DNA from: Eledone cirrhosa
Lineage: Eukaryota
Length of the DNA stretch: 64,000 bases
Direction of reading: 5' to 3'
NCBI GenBank assembly: GCA_964016885.1
Contig: OZ024747.1
Location: forward strand, 41,912,001 to 41,976,000
The notes beneath the pieces are model-generated. The model was not told where the DNA came from, did no database searches, and saw only the letters and a list, made by a program, of their open reading frames with translations. Shown piece by piece: positions 765 to 61,094 of this stretch. Each line of letters opens with the position of its first letter. The first letter of the stretch is position 1. A program made the position numbers and the translations under genes.

Positions 765-2990
765 TCCGTTTTACGTCCGTTCTTCCACGCTGGCATGGGT
801 TGTCCTGTTGTGGGCAGTGTCCGGTCGGCTGACCATGCCTTGCTCATACAGGAACTGATTCTGGCTTGATTTCTACAGCTGGATGCCCTTCCTAACACCA
901 ACCCCATTTACAGTGAGTGCTGGGTGCTTTTTTGCCGTGGCGCCTACACGTCCACTTTACAGTGGGCTGGGTGCTTTTTTGCATGGCACCTACGTGACCA
1001 CTTTGCAGTGGGAGAGTGTGGGGGCATATTATCTATATGCTTCAGCTGGTACCCATGGGAGGTCGGATCTTTTGTATCATTGCATGACGCCAGAGGTCAC
1101 GGTCGTGTGTCATCGCCTTTGAGAGGTGCAGTTGGGTAAGCTCAGCTTTTATCACCTCATCCCAGGTCTTCTTGGGTCTCCCCACTCCACGGTTTCCATC
1201 GACTTCTAGTGCTCTGCACCTTTTTATGCTGCTGTCATCCTTCATACGCATCACATGTCCATACCAATGCAACCGCCTCTCCTGCACACAGCATTTGATT
1301 CCTCTTATGCCCAGTCTCTCTCAATTCGTTTATACTTTGCTGTTCGCATAAATTACTATTACACATCCATCGGAGCATGCAAGCTTCGTTTCTTTCTAAT
1401 CTACGCAAGTCTTCTACAAACAGCGCCCAGGTCTCACTACCATGTAACATTGCTGTTCGTATACACGCATCATACAGTCTGGCTTACATTTTGAGGGAAA
1501 AGCCTTTTGCAGTTAGCAGTGGCAGTAGCTCCCTGAACTTCTTCCATCCCATTCTTACCCTAGTTATTGTACTTTCCGAAGACCCACCTCCACTGCTAAT
1601 TCGGTCACCTAGATAGCAGAAGCTGTCTACTGTTTCTGCAGAGCCCTCCCAGAGTTTGGTGGTACTTGTTTCCTGTGGCTGTTTGCTGCTTGCTGTCCCA
1701 GCACAGCTGTTACATGTGAAGCCTACATTCTTAGTTAAGCTTCCTGAGATCCCACTCCATCTCTTGTGTACCCATTGTTTGCATTTGGGGCAGAGAATGG
1801 AGTTCCTACCTACACCTTTCCTACATACTGAGCAAGGCCATTTCCCTGAGGGGATCTGGGTTCTGTTTTCTCGTCTACTTACAAAGACCTTAGTCTTTGT
1901 CAGGTTGACTTTGAGACCCTTTCTTTCTAGTCCCTGCTTCCAAGTTTGGAATTTCTTCTCTAGTTCTACCATAGATTCAGCTATAAGTGCAAGGTCATCT
2001 GCATACAGGAGTTCCCATGGGTCTTAAACTCCTCCGTTATTGCCTGCAGGTCTATGATGAACAGGAGAGGGCTAAGAACAGAGCCCTGGTGGACACCGAC
2101 CTGTATGCTAAATTCCTCGCTATAGTCATTGCTAATCCTAACTTTGCTGACTGTTCCCTTATACATGGCTTGTACAGCTTTCGCAAGCCATTCATCTACT
2201 CCTAGTTTTCTAAGAGCCCACCAGATTATAGCACGTGGAACTCTGTTAAAGGCTTTCTCAAGATCAACGAATGCCAGGCAGAGCAGCTTACTCTTAGCTA
2301 GGTACTTTTCCTGTAACTGCCTCACAAGGAAGAGGGCATCAGTGGTGCCTCTTCCTGGCACAATTCCAAATTGCATCTCATCTAGTTTCACCCGGTCCCT
2401 AATCAACTGTGCTATAACTCTTTGCGTTACTTTCATGACCTGGTCCATCAGCTTTATACCTCTATAGTTTCCTCTATCTAGTGCATTACCTTTACCTTTG
2501 TAGCAGTTGACAATGATGCTACTGCACTAATCTTTTGGTATGACACCTTCTAGTATTACCTGGTTAACAATACGTGTGGTTATAGTGTGACCTACCGACC
2601 CAGATGCCTTCAGCATCTCGGCAGCTATACCTGATGGAGCGGTTGCCTTCCCCATCTTCATATCTTTGATTGCCTTACTTACTACGCTGCTGCTGACATG
2701 TACTGCTGGCCCCTCTATAGGGTCTACTTGGGGTAGGGTCTCTTCTTCCCATGCATTCTCCTCATTTAGTAATCTATCATAATAGCTCTTCCACACATCT
2801 TTCTTCTCAGCACTTGTGAGGGCAAGCTCACCTTTATCATTCCGGATACACTTCTCTCCAATGACATCAATTCTCTCTGACACACTGCCTCGCAATCTTG
2901 ACACCTAGTATTACCTGGTTAACATACGTGTGGTTATAGTGTGACCTAGCGACCCAGATGCCTTCAGCATCTCGGCAGCTATACTCAATG
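765..2990 (-). mobile_element. 5'-truncated, frameshifted RTE-clade non-LTR retrotransposon in an NPRL3 intron
   Basis: RT motifs QFGIVPGRGTTDA, VDLEKAF, GVHQGSVLSPLLF and YADD (near 2000). Cys-rich finger CSVC...CPKCKQWVH...CNSC. C-terminal LHGSETW and LHWYGHVMRM, followed by the 3' UTR tail. Confidence 0.9.
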
Positions 2991-26752: not shown

Positions 26753-26890
26753 ATGTCACGACCAGGCAAGTCGGAGGAGAAATTCAAAGACAAATTCAAG
26801 AATCTGTTCAAATTTCGGAACAGCTCACCCCCTGCCGCTCAGAAATCTGAAGTGAAAAAAGAATTTGTCTTTACTTCTGACATTCTGCAG
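26753..26890 (+). CDS. TSC2: TSC2 (tuberin) first coding exon
   Basis: Encodes MSRPGKSEEKFKDKFKNLF...KKEFVFTSDILQ, cf. human MAKPTSKDSGLKEKFKILL...TEFIITAEILR. CAG|GTAAGA donor. 138 coding nt. Confidence 0.85.
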
Positions 26891-44300: not shown

Positions 44301-45045
44301 AAAAAAAGCCACATTTTAATTTAAATGAAAATAGGCATTACTTCTACTTTTGAATAGTTAAAATTTGGTGAAGCAGTCATCTGGAAAAAAAGCAAGTTAA
44401 TGCTGTTTATGCAACCAATTGTAGAACTAATCAGATTATTATTACCATGTTTAGAAAACTGTTTACTAAAATGAGTATTATAATTCATATTTTGATAAAA
44501 GGTATTTTAACCTCTCAAATAACTCTTTATTATTTAAACCGACCTTACCCAGCCAGAAATCTCTCACCTCTTTATGTTCTAACCAGCCGTAATCGGCCGC
44601 TCATACTAATATTAAAGTATTGTTCTCAAAATAAATAACCTCAAAATCTCAGATTCGATATTATGTGAGATAATTATGTGAAGTAAAGCCTTTATCATGA
44701 AAATACAATAGTAAATATAGAGTAATGTAAATGCTAAAGAGTTAATCATTTAGGCATAATGCTGTCAATAAAGTTGTTTTATTATTATCTCATGAAATAT
44801 TTCTGGTGGAAAGTAGATAAAGAGATGCTGAATGGTGTAATCCTACAGTACAGGTTTAGTGTTTTGTGGGTTTCTAAATCAAATCCCGTTCTAAGCATTA
44901 CACTACTACTAAATTCATCCACTTCTTTGTGATGACATGATAAAACTTTTCCATCATTAACTGCATCAGTTCTTCACACAATTCTGTATCTTCCCCAATG
45001 ACTCTCTTTAACGTCTTGAAAGGTCTTCCATGTTTGTGTTTCACA

Positions 45046-46356
45046 TTAACCCTTTACCATTCACATTACTCTATATATACTATTGTATTTTCATGGTAAA
45101 GGCTTTACCTCACACATTAACCCTTTACCATTCACATTACTCTATATATACTATTGTATTTTCATGGAAAAGGCTTTACCTCACATTAACCCTTTACCAT
45201 TCACATTACTCTATATATACTATTGTATGTTCATGGTAAAGGCTTTACCTCACACATTAACCCTTTACCATTCACATTACTCTATATATACTATTGTATT
45301 TTCATGGTAAAGGCTTTACCTCACATTAACCCTTTACCATTCACATTACTCTATATATACTATTGTATTTTCATGGTAAAGGCTTTACCTCACACATTAA
45401 CCCTTTACCATTCACATTACTCTATATATACTATTGTATTTTCATGGTAAAGGCTTTACCTCACACTTTAACCCTTTAACATTCACATTACTCTATATAT
45501 ACTATTGTATTTACATGGTAAAGGCTTTACCTCACACCGTAACCCTTTAACATTCACATTACTCTATATATACTATTGTATTTTCATGGTAAGGGCTTTA
45601 ACCCTTTAACATTCACATTACTCTATATATACTATTGTATTTTCATGGTAAAGGCTTTATCTCACATAACATTCACATTGGTGTTAGGAAGGGTATCCAG
45701 CTGTAGAAATCAAGCCAGAATCAGTTCCCGTCCCACCCTTGCAAGCAGGGAAAAGTGGACGTAAAATGAAATGATGATGATGATGATGATTACTCTATAT
45801 ATACTATTGTATTTTCATGGTAAAGGCTTTACCTCACACATTAACCCTTTACCATTCACATTACTCTATATATACTATTGTATTTTCATGGTAAAGGCTT
45901 TACCTCACACTTTAACCCTTTACCATTCACATTACTCTATATATACTATTGTATTTTCATGGTAAAGGCTTTACCTCACACTTTAACCCTTTAACATTCA
46001 CATTACTCTATATATACTATTGTATTTTCATGGTAAAGGCTTTATCTCACATAACATTCACATTGGTGTTAGGAAGGGCATCCAGCTGTAGAAATCAAGC
46101 CAGAATCAGTTCCCGTCCCACCCTTGCAAGCAGGGAAAAGTGGATGTAAAATGAAATGATGATGATGATGATTACTCTATATATACTATTGTATTTTCAT
46201 GGTAAAGGCTTTACCTCACATAATATTGAATCTATAAGATTTTGAAAGTATTTATTTTGAGAACAATACCTTAACATCAGTTTCAGTGACCAGTTACAGC
46301 CAGTGTCAACAGAAAGAGGTAGAGAATTCTGGCCGGTTTGAACATTAAAGGGTTAA
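45046..46356 (+). repeat. ~70-bp tandem array built from the left end of the TTAA MITE, with two embedded RTE/SINE tails
   Basis: Units TTAACCCTTTACCATTCACATTACTCTATATATACTATTGTATTTTCATGGTAAAGGCTTTACCTCACAC. Tails at about 45678-45790 and 46065-46172. The MITE right end AAAGGGTTAA closes the array at 46356. Confidence 0.9.
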
Positions 46357-57512: not shown

Positions 57513-57642
57513 ATAGGAATGAGTGGGACCCCGACGGCTGAGCTCAAGCCGTTTCGATGGCTAATTCTGGACTCAATTCTGGAGTCCAGAATTAGCCGTC
57601 GAAACGGTTTGAGCTCAGCCGTCGGGTCCCACTCGTTCCTAT
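57513..57642. repeat. GC-rich near-perfect palindrome (~61-bp arms, 7-nt loop)
   Basis: ATAGGAATGAGTGGGACCCCGACGG...TCTGGACTC aattctg GAGTCCAGA...CCGTCGGGTCCCACTCGTTCCTAT. Confidence 0.95.
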
Positions 57643-57717
57643 TACCCACTCTACTACCCTAAGTATTGAGTACTTTGGTGCGTTATGGTCCACCTGGTTC
57701 CTTACCACATTTCCTTC

Positions 57718-57754
<37 letters not shown>

Positions 57755-57948
57755 AGACACCAAGCAGGCTTTGTTTATAAACAGCTAGCGAATTTGAAAA
57801 TTAGGTAGTAACATATGCTTACGCCGTATTTGACTAAATAGAATTAGTCTGTTAGTTGGGATTTAAAAAAAAAACCCTCTGAATGGAAAAAATGATGAGT
57901 ATTGATGTATATAAGAAGAAATTAAAAGATGGTTAAAAAAGTCCCATG

Positions 57949-58017
57949 TATTTTATTATGCGCATTTCAAAAACAAATCATCCTGGGACGATATTTGCGT
58001 TCTCATCAGATAAAATA
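57949..58017 (-). ncRNA. Minimal type I hammerhead ribozyme motif (left arm, antisense copy)
   Basis: Exact reverse complement of 58103-58171. Confidence 0.75.
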
Positions 58018-58102
58018 GGGAGACATGATATGAATCAACATATGTTGATTAGACACTACCTTGCTCACAAGTGTCTTTTTTAAGCTTCATATCATGTCTC
58101 CC

Positions 58103-58171
58103 TATTTTATCTGATGAGAACGCAAATATCGTCCCAGGATGATTTGTTTTTGAAATGCGCATAATAAAATA
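58103..58171 (+). ncRNA. Minimal type I hammerhead ribozyme motif (right arm, TSC2 sense strand)
   Basis: TATTTTAT-CTGATGA-[stem II gaacgcaaat...atttgttttt]-GAAA-TGCGCA-TA-ATAAAATA. 8-bp stem I, perfect core boxes and a palindromic stem III. Confidence 0.78.
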
Positions 58172-58296
58172 CATGGAACTTTTTTTAACCATCTTTTAAT
58201 TTCTTCTTATATATACTCCAGTCCAATAAATTGTTGAGTGCTACTTATCCAATATTTGCATTGCTTTATTGTTCTACAATAAAACTCACCTCCTAC

Positions 58297-58352
<56 letters not shown>

Positions 58353-58705: not shown

Positions 58706-59015
58706 TTATATAATAATAATAGGTATAAATAGAAGTTGTAGCCATAGTGTAGCAGATATAAATCAAATTGTTTAAGGCAGCCACAAAGCACTCATTGGCG
58801 TGTGAAAGGTTAATACATTTTCATCCAGAGTAAACACAAAAAGTTAAAGTGTGATACCAAGAATAAAGTGGCCATACTTAATACCACAACATCTATAAAT
58901 ACAAACAGGTCGACATGTTTGTATTTATAGATGTGATATTAATTATGGCCACATACATTTGGTTGCTTTATTTTTGGTGTCACAATTTCTTAACTTTTTG
59001 TTTTTACTCTGGATG

Positions 59016-59073
<58 letters not shown>

Positions 59074-59411
59074 GGAGGCACATGGCTTAGTGGTTAGAGC
59101 ATTGGCCTTGCAATCGAAAGGTTGTGAGTTCAATTCTCAGACCGGGTAATGTGTTGTGTCCTTGAGCAAGACACTTTATTTCACATTGCTCCAGTTTACT
59201 CAGCTGTAGAAATGAGATGATAGGGACTGGGGTCCCTATCATTCCACTGCAAAGTGGTCGTGGAGGTGCCACGGCAAAAAAGCACCCAGCACCCACTGTA
59301 AATAAGGTTGGTGTTAGGAAGGGCATCCAGCTGTAGAAATCAAGCCAGAATCAGTTCCCGTCCCACCCTTGCAAGCAGGGAAAAGTGGACGTAAAATGAT
59401 GATGATGATGA
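59074..59411 (+). mobile_element. tRNA-derived SINE with RTE-derived tail
   Basis: A and B boxes, a tail matching the LINE 3' UTR at about 770-990, and an (ATG)n end. Confidence 0.88.
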
Positions 59412-60986: not shown

Positions 60987-61094
60987 AATGCTGTGGCTGC
61001 CATATGGCAAGCTATCAAAGATTTGGTTGATTCTCCTGTTACAGAAGACAGGCACGTTGCATTGACTTTCCTGTTACATCTTATCAAGGGGCAG
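60987..61094 (+). CDS. TSC2: TSC2 third coding exon
   Basis: Encodes NAVAAIWQAIKDLVDSPVTEDRHVALTFLLHLIKGQ, cf. human [37 protein letters not shown]. ttttctaattccAG acceptor and GTAAGA donor. Confidence 0.88.

Follow-up and report, generated by a model that had tools for sequence, protein, structure and literature searches.

Mirror-image hammerhead motifs in a probable TSC2 intron of Eledone cirrhosa belong to a doubly truncated insertion of a Penelope-like retrotransposon

Introduction

Why should a protein-free palindrome in the genome of Eledone cirrhosa carry a complete hammerhead ribozyme motif on each strand, apparently within an intron of TSC2? The palindrome lies in a window of 64,000 nucleotides (assembly GCA_964016885.1, contig OZ024747.1, positions 41,912,001 to 41,976,000), which is the whole stretch of DNA analysed here. 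A sequence-only reading of this window had proposed a non-autonomous hammerhead mini-element, probably derived from an inverted Penelope pLTR, whose long RNA duplex could silence or switch self-cleavage and so protect the TSC2 pre-mRNA. We asked what the element is, how its two arms came to face each other and whether they matter to the host gene. Coordinates are those of the window, and signed positions are counted from the predicted ribozyme cut site.

Results

The palindrome and its borders

The two arms (57908-58034 and 58086-58213) aligned over 128 columns with one mismatch and one gap, and a motif scan of both strands placed one hammerhead layout in each near-perfect arm. The palindrome and both of its motifs are real. 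The span first given, 57908..58212, was correct for the palindrome but not for its right border, since the element extends about 85 nt further, to approximately 58298. The whole feature is a 390-base, two-armed, doubly 5'-truncated insertion of a Penelope-like retrotransposon (PLE), whose assignment to the Hydra clade is considered below. Its left part is an inverted, 5'-truncated pLTR arm without tail (57908..58034, minus strand), which runs from -79 to about +50 and ends at a family site that we call S1. A segment centred on the palindrome CATATG (58033..58044) is interpreted as the head-to-head joint, and from 58039 to 58215 there follows a sense pLTR arm (plus strand) starting at -124, a hotspot of 5' ends in the family. 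The PLE tail (58216..58298, plus strand, +52 to +134), delimited by comparison with loci L052, L044, L049 and L105, ends at the second family site, S2; in full units this sequence forms the beginning of the next unit's 5' UTR and continues towards the ORF within that UTR. A (TA)n run (58299..58349) closes the right end of the insertion, and the left flank of this copy has only a short TA stretch. As had been noted, no protein is encoded, the longest ATG-started frame having 47 codons.

The two hairpins described in a spacer between the arms exist, but there is no separate spacer, since this segment is element sequence: the first hairpin is the inversion joint at CATATG and the second (58051..58076, plus strand) is ordinary upstream pLTR sequence, also found at 27 other loci examined when overlapping loci are counted too. 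At the joint about 33 nt (-112 to -80) are missing from the left arm; we infer that they were deleted later or skipped by a jump at insertion. Because the tail arm starts from -124 and the tail-less arm from -79 plus a 6-nt fold-back, this copy may be a perfect palindrome minus 33 nt at its centre.

Several other repeats were seen in the window. The left flank (57778-57885) is itself a multicopy repeat, judged by contig depth. A second palindrome (57513-57720), with a one-sided extension and no hammerhead core seen, lies between (TA)n runs; its family, with 4,297 candidates, has a near-fixed structure that varies in the centre only and could be a true non-autonomous PLE-like stub family. A third, older palindrome (58817-59020) showed a 76% self-match. 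Broken LINE-type reverse transcriptase fragments with a YADD motif were recognised by eye at 1045-2904 (minus strand), the tRNA-like head of a probable SINE at 59075-59200 (Rfam tRNA 28.1 bits, cut-off 29), and an array of ~70-nt repeats at 44676-45536, inverted relative to the copy at 44677-44746. Rfam miRNA matches were rejected, all being far under their gathering scores.

Hammerhead motifs and their predicted folding

When both strands of the entire 64-kb window were scanned, only two hammerhead motifs were found, one per arm. Both are of type I: one on the minus strand (57949..58017), with a predicted cut after 57957, and one in the TSC2 sense (58103..58171, plus strand), where the scan placed the cut after A58163, exactly as read from the sequence before. 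In the latter, stem I pairs 58103-58110 with 58164-58171, CUGAUGA occupies 58111-58117 and GAAA 58152-58155, and stem III is palindromic, so that CUGANGA, GAAA, NUH and the three helices of a type I hammerhead were all present. The motif had been called a minimal type I hammerhead; the type I layout stands but the motif is not minimal, as stem I has 8 bp and stem II 34 nt closed by G10.1-U11.1. The usual G10.1-C11.1 pair is absent: family A, to which this copy belongs, has G.U, with U in 145 of 149 arms, and U was also found at L014, a locus of family B, while in the other rows of families B and C the U was preset by the search pattern. Family B (L014, 1095-1388, and L147-L176) is a sister hammerhead family with 5,159 exact-pattern matches and the same two-end architecture, and L150 represents a third variant, family C. 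Rfam gave no hammerhead family at E<=10 for the locus.

The active fold was predicted to lie 5.2 kcal/mol above the minimum in the monomer, 0.6 kcal/mol in a direct dimer and 112 kcal/mol inside the palindrome. These values agree with two earlier expectations, namely that the palindromic stem III suits a dimer and that the long duplex would outcompete the ribozyme fold. The hammerhead of the parent element is thus predicted by the folding model to cleave mainly as a dimer via stem III.

Among family arms, the proportion of variable cells was 1.8% in GAAA, 3.8% in stem III and 1.4% in the 3' strand of stem I, whereas the flanks reached 9.4-9.7% and the tail 4.5%. Variation was lower in the 5' strand of stem I and in CUGAUGA, but there it is biased by the search pattern. 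Covariation was detected in 7 of 20 pairs over 10 rows from 3 families, a score matched by 0 of 500 shuffles, the rows being hand-picked and related and so representing few independent events. Across these 10 rows of the three families the pairing of stem II was maintained by compensatory changes. Because core positions vary less and stem II shows compensatory changes, the hammerhead fold has been under selection in the mobile lineage. Stem II of this copy carries a private 2-nt deletion, and the exact 34-mer spanning it had two matches in 3 Gb, both in its own arms.

The parent element

A first look at the genome with the arm gave 1,359 candidates, and an exact 25-mer of the ribozyme had 1,724 matches (control, 0). 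In longer copies the arm is continuous with a 3' UTR and, beyond it, an ORF in which YRDD, CxCX5C, CxxC and CxH occur together with a GIY-YIG-like motif; the arm is therefore of high copy number and linked to a Penelope ORF with reverse transcriptase (RT), GIY-YIG and Hydra motifs, which bears out the proposed origin from an inverted Penelope pLTR. At the locus itself a pLTR with hammerhead, an inverted 5'-truncated copy and a tail at one end were all found, as in a PLE insertion. At L052 we recognised a natural unit of 3,673 nt (pLTR-ORF-pLTR) that contains RRLRW and DKT. On inspection of L034, L052 and L061 the single ORF has RT followed by a C-terminal GIY-YIG, with YRDD preceding a VYECK...YFGST region. 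The N-terminal RWK position reads RRLRWI, with K replaced by I, DKG has become DKT (HSDKTNNLY in L053, L055, L060 and L061), and the linker motifs are CNCPNRTKC, CNLC and CIH/CLH. A Pfam search with a 459-aa piece of the parent gave no family match; in a protein search with the parent RT, identities were 31-41% among the best 120 of 126 relatives. A pure TA run followed 104 of 159 S1/S2 ends, and most of the others were followed by near-TA or CA runs.

According to the accessible text of PMC8557442, these motifs and (TA)n targets define the Hydra clade. We assign the parent to Hydra-clade PLEs on its motifs, its targets and a comparison by eye. The copy under study is ~95-97% identical to other family members, and therefore young.

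Two further observations concern coding sequences. The L052 ORF linker and L056 contain an Asn-rich segment between the RT thumb and the CxCX5C linker, internally duplicated in some copies. ORF pieces of other divergent Hydra-like PLE families lie beside family A copies (L033, 422-2194, minus strand; L030, 46-720, plus strand).

Arm ends, pairing and the 5' hotspot

Loci L001-L132 were mapped on a natural copy, L019. We excluded L031-L038, eight stretches that were large or neighbouring, a further 17 loci that overlapped or duplicated others, and one that gave no match, and kept 106 loci; these are a non-random set composed of 30 top BLAST hits, 24 loci reached via the ORF, 20 chosen mostly because they were paired, and the first matches by position.

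The 3' ends of the arms fell at ~+51 (S1) or ~+134 (S2). Divergent pairs combined one S1 with one S2 end in 57 of 61 cases, some of the counted pairs being 1-6 kb apart; in the other 45 of the 106 loci there was no divergent pair within the stretch examined. When both arms contained the core, S1 was paired with S2 in 29 of 32 (p 2.6e-6). Family B, after removal of four overlapping loci and one family C locus, showed the same combination in all 15 pairs from 26 loci, two of them with wide gaps. Among the first 100 of the 1,724 ribozyme matches, 38 were paired within 10 kb (18 divergent pairs, one convergent pair and no direct pair) and 62 had no close inverted exact partner.

The two arms of one locus diverged by 3.7% and arms of different loci by 8.6%, and 22 rare alleles were common to both arms in 16 of 32 loci (1.3 in shuffles), which favours a single RNA source for both arms of each insertion; gene conversion, or two RNAs of one master copy, could give the same signal. 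In the 57 pairs the tail-less arm reached further 5' in 34, the tail arm in 13, and both equally in 10, and 17 tail arms ended downstream of the cut site. Joints lay within 6 nt of flush in 33 of 57, with 17 overlaps, and were perfect palindromes at CATATG in L004, L108 and L117. Junctions differed from copy to copy, no combination occurring more than twice among the 57, and the -79/-124 junction of this copy was absent from the other pairs examined.

At the 5' side, 35 of 136 arms began at -126..-118, in several subfamilies and many without fold-back. In family B, 13 of 33 such ends fell at -116..-102; its hotspot is at TCACT, whose A lies 31 nt below a TATA box, and family A has a weak TATA-like signal upstream of -123. 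Penelope transcription is described as starting inside the pLTR in the accessible part of PMC2377424. The hotspot near -123 is likely to represent the RNA 5' end, that is, the transcription start.

The TSC2 context

The placement in a TSC2 intron was upheld, but by weak matches. Upstream, an exon running from ATG to a GT donor (26753..26890, plus strand, by eye) is probably the first coding exon of TSC2, which we take to be the start of the gene from its resemblance to the human N-terminus. Downstream of the element, an exon at 60987..61094 (plus strand) corresponds weakly to the DUF3384 region (E 0.0096, below cut-off; human tuberin E 0.37), and on the same strand, 30-40 kb downstream, there are exons whose tuberin-domain matches exceed the Pfam cut-off. 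A genome search with DUF3384 gave only two weak matches, downstream of the window, and an exon expected between 26890 and 60987 was looked for and not found. Among the sequencing runs listed with matching sequence, none was of RNA.

The sense ribozyme has the orientation of TSC2 and lies downstream of its antisense copy. Transcription of the pre-mRNA would yield the antisense arm before the sense arm and the two would pair, and this ribozyme copy is accordingly predicted never to fold. The 112 kcal/mol bias would mean a permanent off state, not a switch. That the duplex was selected as a switch or silencer to keep the ribozyme from cutting TSC2 pre-mRNA, as had been suggested, seems highly improbable to us, even though the orientation and the folding cost would suit it: integration of the family routinely yields the head-to-head form, which arises genome-wide, close inverted exact partners are lacking for 62 of the first 100 matches, the copy is young, and the monomer is predicted to be weak anyway. 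Moreover, the metazoan PLE hammerheads tested in the accessible parts of PMC4209133 and PMC11167929 were inactive as monomers or needed the PLE protein. The mirror-image ribozymes are likely to be a by-product of the insertion rather than a host-gene switch. The locus is one of well over a thousand stubs, and beyond forming a ~128-bp intronic RNA duplex it probably does nothing. Such a duplex is a possible substrate of ADAR or Dicer.

Discussion

Origin of the inverted arms

The data together make it very probable that the palindrome consists of two 5'-truncated, ribozyme-bearing pLTR ends of a high-copy Hydra-clade PLE, joined head to head, likely in one integration with two reverse-transcription starts, and probably inert for TSC2. 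Two known kinds of element were rejected: a TIR DNA transposon or MITE, as the arms represent the 3' end of a retroelement and do not end at the same point, and a retrozyme, as the first 100 of the 1,724 matches included no direct tandems within 10 kb.

An inverted arm might also be made if a single cDNA or antisense RNA snapped back and primed its own copying (self-priming), the published hypothesis for rotifer Penelope (PMC3846280, in its accessible part). The perfect CATATG palindromes at several joints and the variants common to both arms fit this explanation, and this copy taken alone is compatible with self-priming as well as with dual priming. A fold-back copy, however, can neither exceed the 5' end of its template nor add a tail absent from it, whereas the tail-less arm most often reaches further 5', many tail arms end short of the cut site, and the -123 hotspot is also seen without fold-back. 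Dual priming is favoured over self-priming because the ends are one of each, rare variants are shared and 5' ends are piled at one point, and we consider self-priming unlikely. An assembly artefact would be barely credible: the private deletion is common to both arms, and none of three contig sets of one sample (0.61-0.72 of words) spans the joint at 58038-58046, a hole that proves nothing, but the arms differ at two places, the tail is confined to one of them, there is no mirroring of the flanks, and 56 other loci show this asymmetric form too.

The self-standing mini-element of the sequence-only reading, retrozyme- or MITE-like and copied as a unit by PLE enzymes, is very unlikely. It could draw on the neighbouring palindrome at 57513-57720, whose 4,297 candidates keep a near-fixed arm-arm-tail form, on the reported ability of pLTRs to act in trans (PMC3846280, accessible part), and on two loci 5.6 Mb apart, L064 and L068, that have the same odd 48-nt centre and a rare allele in common. 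Against it, junctions vary among copies, the private stem II deletion has left no daughters elsewhere, the -79/-124 junction recurs in no other pair examined, and direct tandem pairs of the kind that characterise retrozymes are missing within 10 kb among the first 100 exact matches. L064 and L068 (C1:21.33 Mb and 26.96 Mb; one S2/S1, one S2/S2) can be explained by a palindromic copy re-copied as a unit, or duplicated, and form a possible exception to the variable centres.

Under dual priming, the PLE endonuclease would nick both strands of a TA-rich target, and the two target ends would prime cDNA synthesis at different sites, one at +134 and one at +51, using a single RNA or sister RNAs of one source copy. 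Each cDNA would halt early or run off the RNA 5' end near -123, the likely transcription start, and the two cDNA ends would then be joined through microhomology. A PLE protein studied in vitro nicks and extends each of the two strands, with reverse transcription beginning at two sites on either side of the tail (PMC11167929, accessible part); two primings, one per site, would fit both these data and the arms described here. For the stronger proposition, that dual priming is obligatory in Hydra-clade PLEs, we see about even chances. Every insertion would then use both RT sites with one RNA source, each site serving a different target strand, and cDNAs would frequently run off the capped 5' end just upstream of the hammerhead. 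If true, a single mechanism would account for inverted pLTRs, one-sided tails and palindromic stubs alike, it would replace the self-priming hypothesis, and the thousands of copies in this genome would be a direct test set.

The making of inverted pLTRs and one-sided tails in PLEs is described as unresolved in the accessible text of PMC8557442. Dual priming and self-priming can be told apart by a genomic test based on the one-of-each end rule, the unequal reach of the arms and the hotspot of 5' ends, and we regard the family as more important than the locus and the end rule as the part worth following. The genome contains at least 1,724 plus 5,159 exact-pattern hammerhead copies, of a kind missed by Rfam at this locus. 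Literature searches, which left most subscription papers outside, found none on twin priming or template switching in inverted or tailed Penelope elements and nothing on this PLE family among papers on octopus hammerhead ribozymes; the accessible part of PMC13282606 mentions neither Hydra nor hammerheads.

Comparison with known systems

Earlier publications describe head-to-head pLTRs of which one arm has a tail, as well as hammerheads lying on opposite strands, and what is added here is the counts. The comparisons that follow refer to the accessible parts of the papers cited. In Penelope-13_HM an inverted, 5'-truncated copy likewise places a hammerhead on each strand, and a G.U pair closes stem II both there and in Penelope-17_HM (PMC8557442, Craig et al. 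2021). The parent shares with the Hydra clade (C-terminal EN+) DKT, CxCX5C, CxxC, CxH, (TA)n targets and a hammerhead near the 3' end, and its protein is colinear by eye with the N-terminal part of Hydra-1_Obim. It departs from the clade in its length (3.67 kb, whereas the clade is "generally <3 kb", stated as a tendency), in having RW[I] instead of RWK, and in its Asn-rich linker; its hammerhead sequence does not resemble the one given for Hydra-1_oBim, stem II being longer here and stem III a perfect 8-nt palindrome. The Asn-rich segment of L052 and L056 recalls the N-rich inserts reported in rotifer Penelope (PMC3846280).

Penelope insertions with an inverted pLTR and an optional tail (Arkhipova et al. 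2013, PMC3846280; Schostak et al. 2008, PMC2377424) resemble those described here in their head-to-head pLTRs, one-arm tail, palindromic joints, and TATA plus TCACT initiator in the pLTR. The tail, however, has ~83 nt here versus 31-40 in those insertions, and the published explanation is self-priming, whereas our arm-length data favour two priming events. PLE min-hammerheads are dimer-dependent and of low activity, and dual motifs, one on each strand and separated by ~100-700 bp, are reported among them (Cervera and de la Pena 2014, PMC4209133). The motifs of this family are like them in the type I fold within the pLTR, the long helix II, the palindromic helix III and the dimer dependence, predicted in our case, and unlike them in an 8-bp helix I (vs 4-5), G10.1-U11.1 (vs G10.1-C11.1) and the presence of helix III.

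Non-LTR retrozymes (PMC7229834; bioRxiv 10.64898/2026.07.22.740005) are likewise protein-free type I hammerhead repeats related to PLE pLTRs, but they form direct tandem arrays, while this element is inverted and continuous with a coding parent. A parallel to dual priming is Poseidon PAc of Anolis (Frangieh et al. 2024, PMC11167929), which cleaves and extends both strands and has two internal RT starts, one on either side of the tail. PAc belongs to another clade and was studied in vitro, and the one-of-each pairing of sites in genomic inverted insertions, not reported in the accessible part of that paper, is what the Eledone copies show.
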